Source of the DNA: Candidatus Uhrbacteria bacterium
GTDB lineage: Bacteria; Patescibacteriota; Patescibacteriia; UBA9934; GWF2-40-263
NCBI GenBank assembly: GCA_903843045.1
Contig: CAIMOJ010000027.1
Coordinates: forward strand, 1-54,255
Reading direction: 5' to 3'
DNA length: 54,255 nt
The translations under genes were made by a program, and so were the position numbers. Shown piece after piece: positions 991-36,648 of this stretch. Positions within the stretch are counted from its first letter, which is position 1; each line of letters opens with the position of its first letter. The notes below the pieces were generated by a model. The model did no database searches. It was not told the origin of the DNA and was given only the letters and a program-made list of their open reading frames with translations.

Positions 991-1355
991 TTCGCGTACA
1001 AGATTTGTGTTCAAGCGTCCGTCACGCGCTGCGAGGGGTGTCCGTCGTGTTCAAGGCCGAACAATCTTTTCGCATCCAGGCCTGCGGCGCGGTCGCGGCA
1101 ATCGTCCTCGCGGCGATCTATCGAATCTCCACCAACCAGTTTCTCATTATTCTCCTGCTGATCGGCGCCGTCCTTACGCTGGAGATCGTCAACACCATTT
1201 TCGAACGGCTCGTCGACAGCTTCCAGCCTCGCATTCATCCGATCGTCCGCGACATCAAGGACATCATGGCCGGGGCCGTCCTCATCGCCTCGATCGTGTC
1301 CCTCGTCGCGGGAATCGTCATCTTCTGGCCGTACTTGGCCGAGACTGTGCTATAA
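987..1355 (+). CDS. dgkA: Diacylglycerol/undecaprenol kinase family (DgkA)
   Basis: EQSFRIQ, LEIVNTIFERLVD, KDIMAGAVL motifs; three hydrophobic segments; ATGA overlap with ybeY. Confidence 0.88.
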   Translation: MIRVQDLCSSVRHALRGVSVVFKAEQSFRIQACGAVAAIVLAAIYRISTNQFLIILLLIGAVLTLEIVNTIFERLVDSFQPRIHPIVRDIKDIMAGAVLIASIVSLVAGIVIFWPYLAETVL

Positions 1356-2778: not shown

Positions 2779-4125
2779 ATGGCCGAAGTGAAACCCGACA
2801 TTGAGACGTTCGCCAAGATCAAGGTGGTTGGCATTGGTGGGGGCGGAGGCGCGGCGGTGAACCGCATGATCTCGGACAAGATCAAGGGCGTCGAGTTTAT
2901 CGTCGTGAACACGGACGTGCAGGCGCTCCATCAGAATCTCGCGCCGAACAAGATTCCGATCGGAAAGACGGTAACGCGCGGCCTTGGCGCCGGCATGAAC
3001 CCGGAAGTCGGCCGACACGCGGCAGAGGAAAGCGTGAACGAGATTCGCACGGTGCTCAACGGCGCGGACATGGTGTTCGTGACGTGCGGGCTCGGAGGCG
3101 GAACCGGAACGGGGGCAACGCCGGAGGTGGCGAAGGTCGCGAAGGAAATCGGCGCGCTTACCATCGCCGTGGTCACGAAGCCATTCTCGTTCGAGGGCGC
3201 CCAGCGCCGACGCATCGCCGAGGAAGGGTATCAGCAGCTTCTCCAGTACGTGGACACGATCATCACCATCCCGAACGACCGCGTGCTCCAGATCATCGAC
3301 AAGAAGACGTCGCTCCTCGACGCGTTCAAGGTGGTGGACGACGTGCTTCGCCAGGGCGTGCAGGGAATCTCCGAGCTCATCACCATCCCGGGCCTCATCA
3401 ACGTCGACTTCGCCGACGTGAAGGCCATCATGCAGAACTCCGGCTCGGCGCTCATGGGCATCGGCCGCGCCACCGGCGAGAACCGCGCCGTGGAGGCTGC
3501 CAAGCAGGCGATCGCTTCGCCGCTCCTCGAGGTTGCCATCGACGGCGCCAAGGGGATCCTGTTCACGATCACGGGAGGAACCGACCTCGGCATGCACGAG
3601 GTCGCGGAAGCCGCCAAGATCATCACGGGCTCGGCCGACGAGGACGCGCGCGTCATCTTCGGCGCCAACATCGACGAGAGCATGGGCGAGGAGGTGCGCA
3701 TTACCGTCGTCGCGACCGGCTTCGACAGCCGTGACCGACGGATGGCCGCCCCCGGAGTGGTTGAGATCCCGGCCCAGAACACCTGGACCCCGGCCCCGCT
3801 CCGCGTCCGCGAGGACGACCAGGCCCGCCGTCAGCAGAAGGCCCCGGTGAGCTATCCGCAGCCACAGCCGACCCCGATGCGCCCGATGATGCCGCCGCCG
3901 ATGCCGGTCCAGCAGCCACAGCCGGCATACGTCCAGCCGTCGTACGCGCTGCCGACCATGAGCAGCCCGATCCAGCAGGGCAGCGCCCCGAGCTTCCAGG
4001 CGCGCCCGGCCCCGACGAGCTCCCAGTACATGCCGCCTCCGCCGCAGCCGATGGCGCAGCAGAAGCAGCAGACCGAGGAAGAGGAGATCGAGATCCCGGC
4101 GTTTATCCGAAAGAAGATGATGTAG
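2779..4125 (+). CDS. ftsZ: Cell division GTPase FtsZ with long Pro/Gln-rich C-terminal linker
   Basis: GGGTGTG tubulin signature, NVDFADV T7 loop, C-terminal EIPAFIRKK peptide. Confidence 0.98.
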
Positions 4126-33791: not shown

Positions 33792-34442
33792 ATGGCAACC
33801 ATCAACTATACCTCCATTCTTTTCGACCGGGCCAGGACCATCGGCGCGTTCTGCGTCGTCGGGCTCGTCGTCGCGCTGCTCGTCTGCTTCGTGCAGCCGC
33901 TCAAGTATTCGTCCACCGTCCGGCTCCTCGTGATGCAGGACCTCGGCTCGGCCACCGACGCGTACACGGCCAGCCGTTCCGAGGAGCGCATCGCCGAGAA
34001 CCTGTCGACGATCGTGTATACGACGACCTTCTTCGACGAGGTGATGAAGGCCGGCTTTTCCATTCAGGAGCGATACTTCCCAACCAAGGATTACAAGAAG
34101 CGCCAGGAGTGGGCGAAGACCGTCGACGCCACGATCGCGCGCGGGTCGGGACTCATGACCATCACGGCCTACCACCAGGACGTCTCGCAGGCCGAGCAGA
34201 TTGCCCGCGCCGTGGCGTCCGTGCTCACCGCGAAGGCGAGCGAGTACACGTCGGGCGGGGGAGTGCAGGTAAAGCTCATCGACGCGCCGTTGAACTCGCG
34301 GTATCCCGTGAAGCCGAATATTCTGGCAAACGCGGTATCCGGGGTTGTCCTGGGCGGACTGGTCGGAATCGGATTCGTGCTCATGCAATATGAGAAAATC
34401 CGCCGGCGCCACCAATTCGTACATGAGGATAACATTGCTTGA
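33792..34442 (+). CDS. Wzz/YveK-like polysaccharide chain-length determinant
   Basis: Two terminal TM helices, PLKYSSTVRLLV, PVKPNILANAVSGVVLGGLVGI; TGaTATACT-N8-ATG. Confidence 0.75.
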   Translation: MATINYTSILFDRARTIGAFCVVGLVVALLVCFVQPLKYSSTVRLLVMQDLGSATDAYTASRSEERIAENLSTIVYTTTFFDEVMKAGFSIQERYFPTKDYKKRQEWAKTVDATIARGSGLMTITAYHQDVSQAEQIARAVASVLTAKASEYTSGGGVQVKLIDAPLNSRYPVKPNILANAVSGVVLGGLVGIGFVLMQYEKIRRRHQFVHEDNIA

Positions 34443-34467
34443 CGAAAACAGGCGTAAATGTTAGCAT
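34439..34467 (+). promoter_or_regulatory. Promoter firing into the 34476-34564 hairpin
   Basis: TTGACG-N17-TAGCAT with TG extension; the -35 contains the Wzz TGA stop. Confidence 0.6.
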
Positions 34468-34475
34468 AATGGCAC

Positions 34476-34564
34476 AAAAAGCCCATTCAGAGGGTCGGGA
34501 CCAGCGTTCGTGATGACTCCTCCTTATCGCGCTCGCAAGGCCCGGCTCTCTGAGTGGGCTTTTT
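34476..34564 (+). ncRNA. Candidate ~90-nt sRNA with anti-SD-like loop
   Basis: Promoter upstream; 17-bp plus 7-bp stem; loop contains CTCCTCCTTA; ends in T5. Confidence 0.5.
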
Positions 34565-34585
34565 GCGTTATTTCACCCAAACCCC

Positions 34586-34614
34586 TTGACACTTTCCTCC
34601 AAATGTGATATTCT
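34586..34614 (+). promoter_or_regulatory. Promoter of MopE-motif gene 1
   Basis: TTGACA-N17-TATTCT with TG extension; about 220-nt structured leader follows. Confidence 0.75.
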
Positions 34615-34838
34615 CCGACCTTGCTAATCGTTCTTTCCCGTTGCCTCGATTGGCCCGACGTCTCCCTGGCACACCTCCTCCTTGTGCCAGGATCGGACGC
34701 CGGACCAATCGACGCCGCGGGGAATCCTCTTCCGCACGTCAACAAACCCCGGTAACACGGGGTGCAGCGACGCGCGGGGATGGTCCTCGCACGTCAAACA
34801 CCCCGGTGCAAGCCGGAACCCCAGCCAGGAGATCAACC

Positions 34839-36233
34839 ATGACCCAGACCCTCAAGACCAACGGAGGCTCCATGAGCCAGATTTCTTTCCTCGCCCTCGT
34901 GGGCGTTCTCGTCAGCACCCCGGCGTTCGCCGTCACCCCCTGCGCCCCGGTCGCGCCCTGCAAGTCGGCCCCGGTCGTCGAGCCCCTCAAGGACTGCGGG
35001 GCCGCGAACGACGAGCTCTGCACCGAGGCGACGGACGTCGACAAGGACGCCTACTACAGCGACAGCAAGTCGCGCCTCGACTGCGACGACACCAAGGCGA
35101 CCGTCCACCCGACCGCGACCAGCGTGATCGGCGACGGCCTCGACAACGACTGCAGCGGCGACACCGACGACGAGGAGCTCGCCGCGGCGCTCATCGCGGC
35201 CGGCGGCGAAACCAGCCCCGCGGGCATCGCGCTCGCGAAGGACATCGACTCGTGCTGGAACAGCACGGTCGTCGGCGCGGAGGACGCGTACTGGTCCAAG
35301 GGGTCCAAGAAGCCCTGGACCTGCAACGGCCTGGCCGACGGCCTCTCGTTCGAGCGTGGAAAGGGTGTCCTGACCGAGACCCAGACCCACGACCTCGAGT
35401 CCGCCCGGCGCATCGCCGGCGACCGCGCGGTGGCCGCCAAGGCGAAGGCCGAGGCCGAAGCCGTGATCGCGGACGCGAAGGCGACGATGAAGGCCGACGT
35501 GGACGCCGACAAGGCGTACTTCGCGGAGCTGATCTCGCAGAGCGAGGCGACCGTTGTCGAGCTCAGCGCGAAGATCGACGCGTACGATGCCCGGCTCGCC
35601 CAGTTCGAGCTCGACGCGAAGCACGCGGCCTCCCTCCAGAAGGGGATCGACGCGCGGCAGAACGATGCCATCGGCGCGAACACCGCCGACATCGGCGACC
35701 TGCAGCGGCGTGGCGTCATCTTCGAGATCGGCGCCGGCGCCGGTTTCCTCGCCCAGCGCTCGCTGGTCGATGCGGACGGCACGGTCTACCGCAGCGGGAT
35801 GGTCGGCTTCGGCAACGTCGTCGCCAGCATCGGGTACGGGATCCCGAACGCCAGCCTCACCCTCGACCTGAGCTTCGGCGAAGGGTCGACGGGGAGCCTC
35901 GGCGGGACGGTCCCCGACACGGTCGCCTCGGCGGCGGTGGTCGGCCAGTACCGGCACGGCGACATGGCCATCGGTCCGATGCTCACGCTCAGCAGCAGCG
36001 CCACCGGCAACCCGCTGGACTCGGGCGTGAGCGGCTGGGGCCCGGGCATCGGTGCCGCGGCCTCCTGGTTCGCCCCGAACGAGAAGGGGCTGCGGATCGA
36101 GGTCAAGACCCACCTCACGGTCGGTCTCGAGAACTTCGGCACGGACACCAGCCTGACCACCAAGTACTGGGACTCCGGTCTCATGGGCGAGGGCGGCGTC
36201 ACCGTTCTCGTCGGTGGCGGTCCCCGCAAGTAG
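34839..36233 (+). CDS. Secreted protein: one MopE-type metal-binding motif, coiled coil, C-terminal beta-barrel-like domain
   Basis: DCDDTKATVHPTATSVIGDGLDNDCSG; signal peptide ending TPAFA; two in-frame SD-ATG starts (34839, 34872). Confidence 0.75.
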   Translation: MTQTLKTNGGSMSQISFLALVGVLVSTPAFAVTPCAPVAPCKSAPVVEPLKDCGAANDELCTEATDVDKDAYYSDSKSRLDCDDTKATVHPTATSVIGDGLDNDCSGDTDDEELAAALIAAGGETSPAGIALAKDIDSCWNSTVVGAEDAYWSKGSKKPWTCNGLADGLSFERGKGVLTETQTHDLESARRIAGDRAVAAKAKAEAEAVIADAKATMKADVDADKAYFAELISQSEATVVELSAKIDAYDARLAQFELDAKHAASLQKGIDARQNDAIGANTADIGDLQRRGVIFEIGAGAGFLAQRSLVDADGTVYRSGMVGFGNVVASIGYGIPNASLTLDLSFGEGSTGSLGGTVPDTVASAAVVGQYRHGDMAIGPMLTLSSSATGNPLDSGVSGWGPGIGAAASWFAPNEKGLRIEVKTHLTVGLENFGTDTSLTTKYWDSGLMGEGGVTVLVGGGPRK

Positions 36234-36296: not shown

Positions 36297-36312
36297 CGGG
36301 CTACGGCCCGAA

Positions 36313-36441
36313 GGCTGCGAATAACGTATGAGCTACATATCACACAAATTGTTACGTATTCCTACAAACCAGTGTAATATCAGCATCCGCTGCGATTCGT
36401 AGCAATACGTAGGATGTGCAGCTCATACGTTATTCGCAGCC
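36313..36441. repeat. AT-rich 129-bp element with perfect 22-bp terminal inverted repeats
   Basis: GGCTGCGAATAACGTATGAGCT (36313-34) is the exact reverse complement of 36420-41. Confidence 0.9.
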
Positions 36442-36450
36442 CGTTTTCCC

Positions 36451-36479
36451 TTGACAAATCTCACTATTCCTGCTACAGT
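36451..36479 (+). promoter_or_regulatory. Promoter of MopE-motif gene 2
   Basis: TTGACA-N17-TACAGT with TG extension. Confidence 0.75.
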
Positions 36480-36648
36480 ACGACCTTGCCAGAAATGACG
36501 CGCGAGACACTTGTCGAAAGGACATCAAACCTTTCGCCAGATGCCTCCCGCTTCTCGACGCAATCCCGCGTCTGAAAGTGGGTCCAGTCCGGCTTCCCAC
36601 AAGGGCCGGTTCCCAGCCCTGTGGGGCAACATCACCAAGGAGTCTCGA

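Follow-up and report, generated by a model that had tools for sequence, protein, structure and literature searches.

A covarying hairpin with an anti-Shine-Dalgarno-like loop in the predicted 5′ leader of a secreted-protein gene of Candidatus Uhrbacteria

Candidatus Uhrbacteria are tiny uncultured bacteria of the Candidate Phyla Radiation (CPR), whose regulatory RNAs are, to our knowledge, almost unknown. The window analyzed here is a stretch of 54,255 nucleotides from one such genome. The features described below lie upstream of and within a gene for a secreted protein:

34439..34570, + strand: small RNA (sRNA) gene H0, with promoter P1, a hairpin at 34474-34569 whose loop includes CUCCUCCUU, and a terminator
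34586..34614, + strand: promoter P2, TTGACA, 17-nt spacer and TATTCT with a TG extension (10/12 consensus positions)
34638..34720, + strand: H1, a long imperfect hairpin (predicted fold and covariance models R1 and R3)
34711..34740, + strand: copy 1 hairpin, GACG..GGAA / UUCC..CGUC, overlapping on its 5′ side with the 3′ strand at the base of H1
34746..34763, + strand: hairpin A, ACCCCG / CGGGGU with loop GUAACA, kept in 10/10 genus-level sequences
34769..34795, + strand: hairpin B, GACG.GCGGGGA-UGG-UCCUCGC.CGUC, which forms the core of copy 2 and is included in the minimum-energy fold of 10/10 genus sequences
34799..34816, + strand: segment CACCCCG and hairpin C (CCGGU-GCAA-GCCGG, 34803-34816)
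34827..34841, + strand: Shine-Dalgarno site SD1, AGGAG (34827-34831), and ATG1 (34839)
34863..34878, + strand: SD2, GGAGG (34863-34867), and ATG2 (34872), partly within a local hairpin (34866-34878)
34839..36233, + strand: secreted-protein gene, 464 aa, with an N-terminal signal peptide (N-terminus judged by eye) and a Cu-binding_MopE motif (PF11617, E = 1.1e-8)

The region between approximately 34621, the transcript start predicted from P2, and ATG 34839 or 34872 is most likely the ~220-250-nt 5′ leader of the mRNA for the secreted MopE-motif protein. No terminator-like site was found between 34621 and 34838, which argues against a transcription attenuator. The 263-nt leader folded with a predicted energy of -112.3 kcal/mol (z = -5.06), and 0 of 200 dinucleotide shuffles were as stable.

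A long hairpin at 34646-34712 had been proposed in the initial annotation. It is present, and its helix is in fact longer, extending from 34638 to 34720. The apical arms, CCTGGCACA (34665-34673) and TGTGCCAGG (34683-34691), form a perfect 9-bp stem that encloses a 9-nt loop, CCTCCTCCT (34674-34682). As RNA this loop reads CCUCCUCCU, which is anti-SD-like, with CUCCUCCU as the constant anti-SD-like sequence at the tip; the 3′ end of the 16S rRNA of the same genome reads GAUCACCUCCUUUCU. The predicted unpaired probability of the loop is 1.0 in this genome (G000). Invariant positions of H1 are G34652, UCCU at 34676-34679, C34706 and the unpaired A34707. In the order-wide alignment, compensatory changes were observed in 25 of 28 base pairs, 93.8% of the alignment cells were able to pair (31-43% in slid controls), and the observed covariation values were reached by 0 of 500 shuffles. 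The loop core, (Y)CUCCUCC, was retained in 34 of the 38 aligned sequences, and the apical stem varied freely. Judged by this order-wide covariation, H1 is a genuine folded RNA, far beyond chance. Both G-U pairs and model scores (98 bits on the + strand vs 46 bits on the - strand) assign it to the + strand.

Covariance-model searches identified H1 in 51 of the 73 genomes of the family, representing 23 of 29 genera, with one copy per genome, as well as in other families of the same order. Across the class the distribution was patchy, with R3 matching 20 genomes that belong to other orders. The present genome contains a single copy of H1, and a whole-genome look for further anti-SD hairpins detected none comparable to it. 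A pattern scan of genome contigs was unspecific (at least 119 matches, mostly unrelated), and a metagenome scan for H1 variants yielded two new ones only. When the whole window was compared with Rfam 15, no family reached its gathering score, and an Infernal scan that included homologous loci likewise stayed below the gathering score for every Rfam 15 family. H1 is a structured RNA family absent from Rfam 15. A literature search for CPR anti-SD RNAs found nothing relevant.

The surroundings of H1 were compared in 38 aligned loci of the order. In all 38, a promoter of the form TTGAC(A/G/T)-N16-18-TAnnn(T/A) was located upstream of H1, mostly at a distance of 16-50 nt. H1 had the same orientation as the downstream gene in every locus and was never inverted; this gene started with a signal-peptide-like segment in 38/38 loci (N-termini judged by eye), and a terminator-like hairpin with a U5 run was detected in 0/38 leaders. 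H1 was positioned 54-360 nt ahead of the start or SD of the signal-peptide gene, a distance varied by large inserts. The series of promoter, H1, and then SD and ATG, with the SD read by eye, is found in most of the 38 loci on a predicted, terminator-free transcript. Together with the lack of an Rfam family, the co-oriented gene and the terminator-free leader bear out the proposal that this is an undescribed cis-regulatory RNA. The genes downstream of H1 belong to differing families, all of which encode secreted proteins; one orthologue matches OMP_b-brl, and the order's other families have downstream genes that lack the metal motif.

The two in-frame SD-ATG starts reported earlier are present, with ATG2 located 33 nt downstream of ATG1 in the same frame (ORF 34839..36233). 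ATG2 aligns with the single start of other genus members. An in-frame upstream start with its own SD was also observed in G003, G001 (GTG), G008, G002, L163 and L166 and was absent from most genomes; two in-frame starts recur in three clades. The predicted unpaired probability is 0.07 for SD2 and 0.43 for SD1. A clear SD was seen by eye before the start of the signal-peptide gene in most of the 38 loci, whose start codons were picked with an SD filter, so that the SD association rests on N-termini read by eye; doubtful loci include L160, in which GAGGAG lies ~15 nt upstream, and L174, with an ambiguous start. In a crude SD census of this genome, uncalibrated on a reference genome, GGAG or GAGG occurred at -15..-5 in 137 of 958 first-ATG starts (~14%), compared to 58 in a control window, and signal peptides were not enriched among the SD-led genes of this census.

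The leader had also been described as carrying a duplicated module. The sequence repeat (34711-34753 and 34769-34807) does exist in this genome: CGCGGGGA occurs at 34716 and 34773, the stretch beginning with CGCACGTCAA follows collinearly at 34733 and 34788, and ACCCCGGT is found twice (34746-34753 and 34800-34807). In G003 and G001, the closest relatives, this collinear repeat is degraded, and other genomes lack it. Copy 2, which consists of hairpin B and the ACCCCGG segment, is the only copy conserved in the genus; outside this genome, the copy 1 sequence persists in G003 and, in part, in G001 but in no other relative, and the idea of a tandem RNA is therefore not supported. The position of copy 1 is occupied in G007, G005, G008, G002, G004, L148 and L151 by a stem of 10-14 bp with inserts of 0 to ~200 nt; compared with these genomes, copy 1 is a shrunken remnant of a variable stem, V. 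In sister species, the variable stem holds repeat-like inserts.

Hairpins A, B and C form a separate domain between H1 and the start codons. An alignment of this domain by MAFFT/RNAalifold was poor, and per-sequence folds and loop tables were therefore used. The loops of hairpin A were variable across the genus, often of the GNRA type, and a C-run/G-run hairpin was present at the matching place in other genera. Hairpin B showed compensation in both its outer stem (GACG/CGUC vs UGGC/GCUG) and its inner stem (GCGGGGA/UCCUCGC vs GCAGGGA/UCCCUGC), and the linkers and junctions of the domain were poorly conserved. In an alternative fold, the domain is a single long helix with hairpin B as its cap, in which CGGGGUG of hairpin A (34758-34764) is paired to CACCCCG (34799-34805). 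This nested fold has a predicted energy of -40.7 kcal/mol in this genome vs -38.6 kcal/mol for the three-hairpin fold and was the minimum-energy structure in 10/10 genus sequences. In other genera, the loops of the two C-run/G-run hairpins were reverse-complementary in 10 of 18 genomes, corresponding to 7 of 15 loop types vs 12% in mismatched controls. In some genera (L170, L173, L166, L182 and L184), the final hairpin of the C-run/G-run type and the SD overlap.

In other genera, the sRNA gene H0 has an inverted orientation and a promoter of its own. Models of the two hairpins cross-match (53.6 bits for R2 on the H1 of L166 and 30.1 bits for R3 on the H0 of G028), suggesting that H0 is probably a paralogue of H1. 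SRP RNA, Ffh and FtsY were not detected in these genomes. The possibility that H0 or H1 is a divergent SRP RNA was considered and rejected: neither resembles SRP models, Ffh and FtsY were undetected as well, and H1 occurs in part of the class only. No relevant publication on a loss of SRP in CPR came up in a literature search.

Several known systems resemble H1 in part. Cuckoo RNAs of Alphaproteobacteria are free-standing sRNAs with 2-4 adjacent hairpins of 24-50 nt and CCUCCUCCC loops, which have been suggested to pair with ribosome-binding sites (PMC4615179). Like H1, these RNAs (alpha-r14/NfeR1 and CcsR1-4/RSs0680; RF02344, RF02791) expose an anti-SD-like CCUCCUCC loop on stems that vary freely, and H1 also has an adjoining sibling copy, H0. 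In contrast to them, H1 is one hairpin of ~85 nt with the loop CCUCCUCCU inside a CPR mRNA leader, and scores for the cuckoo models were far below gathering (ar14, 15.2 bits vs 58.8; CcsR1, 11.2 vs 65.3). RsaE/RoxS and Staphylococcus aureus RNAIII (UCCC loops) of Firmicutes also have C-rich apical loops proposed as SD-pairing seeds, and RNAIII, like the H1 leader, belongs to a coding transcript (in part after PMC4615179); H1 differs in its phylum and in carrying a full anti-SD motif, and it has no sequence or model similarity to these RNAs. The mraW motif (RF01746) shares with H1 of this genome a long GC-rich hairpin, an apical stem CCUGGCnC and a pyrimidine-rich loop, but is an element of Actinobacteria located upstream of mraW. 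This was the one notable Rfam match, but H1 was rejected as a candidate mraW RNA: its score of 30.4 bits (E = 2e-4 when 501 nt were searched) is below the gathering score of 50, and seven homologous loci gave no mraW match up to E = 5. Long stabilizing structured 5′ UTRs precede ompA and S-layer genes; they resemble the H1 leader in having a hairpin near the 5′ end, a strong promoter and a secreted-protein gene, but are not known to carry a conserved anti-SD loop. In cis anti-SD leaders and translational riboregulators, the ribosome-binding site base-pairs with a segment located further upstream. As in the H1 leader, anti-SD and SD are on one transcript and the intervening domain has alternative folds; however, the anti-SD of H1 is in a hairpin loop 54-360 nt from the SD instead of sharing a stem with it, and its putative contact with the SD would be a long-range loop-to-strand pairing.

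We favor, with a probability of roughly 45%, a leader in which such a contact regulates 30S loading, combined with the A/B/C domain, and regard this tentative reading as the best explanation. H1 would hold CUCCUCCU, a mimic of the anti-SD tail of 16S rRNA, in an open apical loop; the loop would base-pair with the strong SD site or sites of its own mRNA in a long-range contact; this contact would hold back or tune 30S loading on one SD-led gene of an SD-poor genome; and the A/B/C domain, as three hairpins or one long helix, might set the accessibility of the start region. The constant ribosome-like sequence of the tip suggests that H1 probably controls ribosome loading, and the loop most likely pairs with SD sequences in cis, possibly also in trans. 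Predicted loop-SD duplex energies across genomes range from approximately -7 to -16 kcal/mol, and in ~22 of 38 leaders the loop was predicted to pair best with the SD region. In sequences of the genus, the G-runs of hairpins A and B equaled the SD as predicted loop partners. Sequestration of either SD by the loop, the idea put forward in the initial annotation, is thus physically possible according to these duplex predictions. Because both partners are invariant, the pairing is beyond the reach of covariation, and the cis reading is weakened by the generic nature of loop-SD complementarity and by the variable distance between H1 and the SD. If the pairing is true, changing the loop from CUCCUCCU to GAGGAGGA would alter translation of the downstream ORF.

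Trans action is a live rival given that related hairpins are free-standing with terminators and that H0, probably a paralogue, is a gene in its own right. In this scenario H1, whether processed from the leader or still attached to it, would act mainly as an anti-SD sRNA on the SDs of other messages, and co-transcription would merely couple expression. Free-standing, terminated H1-type hairpins in other orders (L195, L204 and L199), the cross-matching models, and the same loop in H0, a gene with a promoter and a terminator of its own whose orientation flips between genera, are in line with this scenario, and cuckoo/alpha-r14/CcsR RNAs, with CCUCCUCCC loops and a suggested role as RBS-pairing translational repressors (PMC4615179), offer a precedent. 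However, the arrangement in 38/38 loci, with H1 on the same strand and terminator-free upstream of a signal-peptide gene, would be needless for a purely trans-acting RNA, and no processing site or target was identified; we consider it a serious possibility, although an unlikely one. Somewhat less probable still is that the leader of an envelope protein expressed at very high levels chiefly provides a 5′ structure that stabilizes the mRNA or binds a protein. The loop and the bulged A would then be a recognition site for a protein (e.g., the product itself, RNase III, or a protein of the KH-domain or S1 type) and not a pairing seed. A near-consensus promoter, the stability of H1 and its location close to the 5′ end, its conserved internal loops and invariant unpaired A34707, and downstream families that differ yet are all secreted, including the OMP_b-brl match, would suit such a structure. 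It leaves unexplained why an invariant 8-nt loop equals the anti-SD and why the same loop is present on a separate sRNA gene, and no candidate binding protein was identified.

Sensing of a ligand (a metal ion or cyclic dinucleotide) by a riboswitch, possibly tandem, appears very improbable. Some riboswitches use loop-loop contacts, and the complementary loops in flanking hairpins, the near-isoenergetic A/B/C folds and the putative metal-binding motif of the downstream protein could be viewed in this light. Nevertheless, Rfam riboswitch models gave no match even at E up to 10 (34400-34900 and homologous loci), linkers, junctions and the tandem copy are not well conserved or not conserved at all, and the metal motif is not order-wide; metal or cyclic-dinucleotide sensing, a check for which had been suggested for this leader, is therefore unsupported. 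The 63% G+C content of the genome and the repeat-like inserts in the variable stem of the sister species might raise the suspicion of chance products of GC-rich intergenic DNA or of a mobile REP-like hairpin, an explanation that we regard as negligible: for H1 it is refuted by a single-copy element that is syntenic across the order, with 25 of 28 pairs compensated.

Physically, H1 is linked to the SD-led gene of a secreted protein, and SDs appear to be rare in this genome. The H1 family shows unusually clean covariation and is already fit for submission to an RNA database. On a more speculative and rather doubtful view, H1, H0 and other anti-SD-loop RNAs of Patescibacteria could be parts of one lineage-wide system that, in genomes with SD sites at a minority of genes, gates a few SD-led messages, here those for surface or secreted proteins, with the leader-embedded anti-SD hairpin and the two-state A/B/C domain acting as a self-contained lock on its own SD that is opened by a signal. 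A weaker variant of this view, prompted by the failure to detect SRP components in these genomes, is that the leader might time translation of the main exported protein. If the loop does pair with SDs, these bacteria would possess a dedicated RNA layer that controls SD-dependent translation.

The predicted 5′ leader of the secreted-protein gene 34839..36233 contains a long hairpin, H1, and a small RNA gene, H0, lies next to it. The sequence features listed in the initial annotation are all where it placed them, including 9-bp arms (34665-34673 and 34683-34691) around the loop CCTCCTCCT (34674-34682). The hairpin itself was recognized, but its assigned extent of 34646-34712 was too short, as the helix spans 34638-34720. 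The 263-nt leader has a folding energy of -112.3 kcal/mol (z = -5.06, with dinucleotide shuffles as reference). The region is arranged as follows:

Wzz-like gene, 5′ of the H0/H1 region
P1, promoter-like site, 3′ of the Wzz-like gene and followed by H0
34439..34570 (+), H0, small RNA gene
34474-34569, H0 hairpin, with loop CUCCUCCUU and a terminator-like site as its 3′ end
34586-34614, P2, near-consensus promoter, 3′ of H0 and 5′ of H1
34638-34720 (+), H1
34746-34763, hairpin A, C-run/G-run, flanking B
34769-34795, hairpin B, copy 2 of a repeated module, with stem covariation within the genus
34803-34816, hairpin C, C-run/G-run, flanking B
34827-34831, AGGAG (SD1), with ATG1 at 34839
34863-34867, GGAGG (SD2), with ATG2 at 34872

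The whole arrangement was recovered by BLAST in seven of the eight other genomes of the genus, and a metagenome scan added two further variants. A covariance model of H1 built on 10 sequences had matches in 51 of the 73 genomes of the family (23 of 29 genera), with a single forward-strand match per genome; in other families of the order, 3/5 (f5), 3/4 (f7) and 5/64 (f4) genomes matched. With a second model based on 38 sequences, 24 of 151 genomes in the class sample had a match, 20 of them from other orders. Standard pairs occupied 93.8% of cells in these 38 sequences, compared with 31-43% when the 3′ partners were slid, and both-sided changes were seen in 25 of 28 pairs versus 14.8 +/- 1.7 in shuffles. 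None of 500 shuffles equalled any covariation measure, although this significance is overstated given that the sequences share kinship. The structure is unambiguously supported by the slid controls and by the diversity of its pair types. G-U pairs and a two-fold score difference between strands place H1 on the forward strand. The apical stem varies freely, while the loop core (Y)CUCCUCC is retained in 34 of 38 sequences and unpaired A34707 is invariant. As the 16S rRNA of this genome (1.28 Mb, 63% G+C, estimated completeness 96%) terminates in GAUCACCUCCUUUCU, the loops of H0 and H1 mimic the anti-SD tail.

Throughout the 38 loci aligned from the order, H1 is preceded by the promoter pattern TTGAC(A/G/T)-N16-18-TAnnn(T/A), lies 54-360 nt 5′ of the start codon and is followed by the gene for a product whose N-terminus resembles a signal peptide. 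None of the 38 leaders has a terminator-like hairpin with a U5 run between H1 and the start codon. A clear SD, read by eye, precedes most of these starts (doubtful in L160, with GAGGAG about 15 nt 5′ of the start, and in L174, where the start is ambiguous); since the start-codon picker demanded an SD, this association depends on the by-eye N-termini and SDs. In one relative, G005, P2 and H1 are separated by about 135 nt of extra sequence, including a GAAGGAGGAC stretch (L013 ~1655-1800), compared to 16-50 nt elsewhere.

The gene product here has 464 residues, an N-terminus resembling a signal peptide, and a Cu-binding_MopE motif. The downstream protein family varies by lineage: within this family the protein bears the MopE motif, and coiled-coil or proline-rich proteins occur elsewhere. 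One orthologue matches OMP_b-brl: the C-terminal 100 residues of L161:1791-3032 barely exceed the cut-off of PF13505, an outer-membrane beta-barrel domain (29.1 versus 28.7 bits). The next MopE-motif gene also has a P2-type promoter (36451-36487; TTGACA-N17-TACAGT, then ACGACCTTG), with no H1-like hairpin after it.

SRP components were searched for with control genomes, which yielded matches. RF00169 had no match in this genome, 41 genomes of the order or a 121-genome phylum sample, and RF01854 had none in this genome. The SRP54 GTPase domain (PF00448) was likewise without a match here and over the cut-off in 0/41 order genomes, while the class sample (151 genomes) had four marginal matches and the phylum sample (121 genomes) one. 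In this genome, matches to PF02978, TIGR00959 and TIGR00064 were absent or insignificant, and a motif scan of its six-frame translation found no SRP-type GTPase; SecY was found (334 bits). This absence reflects either genuine loss or genes missed by the assemblies or the first-look filter.

The two proposed SD-ATG starts are borne out; they are separated by 33 nt and both lie in the frame of the ORF. The single start of most relatives aligns to ATG2, and an SD-equipped upstream in-frame start occurs in three clades (G000, this genome, with G003 and G001, where it is GTG; G008/G002; and L163/L166). The internal SD is retained over differing codons (GGA GGC versus AAG GAG), suggesting that the SD itself is under selection. 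Folding predictions for this genome leave SD1 half open (unpaired probability 0.43) and place most of SD2 within a local hairpin (0.07).

The initial annotation also described a tandem duplicated module. This genome does have a collinear repeat (CGCGGGGA at 34716 and 34773, CGCACGTCAA.. at 34733 and 34788, ACCCCGGT at 34746 and 34800), but only copy 2 is conserved among relatives. ACCCCGG is present twice because A and C are both made of C-runs and G-runs. Copy 1 (34711-34740) overlaps the basal part of H1 on its 3′ strand. At its position, sister species carry a 10-14-bp stem around a 0-200 nt unrelated, partly repeat-like insert, then a small hairpin; both are mostly lost in G000, G003 and G001. 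Copy 1 is thus a remnant of this variable stem, and as its likeness to copy 2 has already faded in G003 and G001, the closest relatives, the leader is modular rather than tandem. The variable stems contain AT-rich inverted repeats of TACGAAA/TTTCGTA-like words (L012 ~1065-1200 (-), L014 ~1075-1240 (-), L148 ~3600-3690), resembling hairpin repeats at 36306-36440 of the window; these repeats seem to enter the tip of the stem and leave its base intact. Leaders outside the G000 subclade (L162, L164, L165, L167, L169, L175, L176 and others) have an extra conserved small hairpin with loop ..GUUCUCUACAA.., then AGGUCAAAA (GGUUCAAAA in the genus), of which G000, G003 and G001 keep just a UCAACAA remnant (34738-34744 in G000).

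Hairpins A and C are mutually complementary, and the domain can therefore adopt either of two predicted folds: three hairpins, at -38.6 kcal/mol, or a single long helix with B as its cap, at -40.7 kcal/mol. The single helix is the minimum-energy fold in 10 of 10 genus sequences. In other genera, loops of the C-run/G-run hairpins were mutually reverse-complementary in 10 of 18 genomes and 7 of 15 loop types (e.g., UGUC/GACA, UC/GA, UCC/GGA, AGUCA/UGAC), compared with 12% in mismatched controls. Such loops support a genuine A-C contact, either as a kissing complex or through extension of the helix.

No Rfam 15 family reached its gathering score in the H1 leader; in the whole window only tmRNA and tRNA did, elsewhere. 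A permissive scan matched H1 to the mraW motif at 30.4 bits (gathering score 50); this match was not repeated in seven homologous loci, and H1 is therefore not a member. Resemblance to the anti-SD sRNAs ar14 and CcsR1 was faint. As initially proposed, H1 is undescribed in Rfam and in the literature searched.

H0 is an independent gene. In many other genera (L160-L181) it is inverted between the same flanking genes, carrying its own promoter (TTGACG-N17-TAnnnT) in the inverted orientation, and it behaves as an independent cassette. Models of H0 and H1 cross-match in some genomes (53.6 and 30.1 bits), suggesting that the two are probably paralogues.

The exposed, invariant anti-SD sequence suggests that the H1 loop base-pairs with SD sites. 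We put pairing in cis at roughly 45%; it is favored because H1 strictly shares its orientation with an SD-led gene and no terminator separates the two. H1-type hairpins from other orders precede signal-peptide genes (L190, L191, L196, L201, L206) in some cases and stand free with a terminator in others (L195, L204, L199). Given these free-standing relatives, action in trans is a rival explanation, judged somewhat unlikely. Duplex energies were non-discriminating, with the SD ranking first among predicted partners of the loop in about 22 of 38 leaders. That the leader is instead a stabilizing or protein-binding structure appears improbable, and a ligand-sensing riboswitch would be quite surprising.

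SD-led genes look like a minority in this genome: in crude, uncalibrated counts, 137 of 958 coding-like ORFs had GGAG/GAGG within -15..-5 relative to their first ATG, versus 58 in a control window, and 165 of 989 ORFs had GGAGG/AGGAG close to any candidate start, versus 114 for the control. By logic, the closest known RNAs include the cuckoo/alpha-r14/CcsR RNAs (PMC4615179) and the C-rich-loop sRNAs of Firmicutes, from which H1 differs in architecture, taxon and model scores. H1 can be described as an anti-SD display hairpin that forms part of an mRNA leader.
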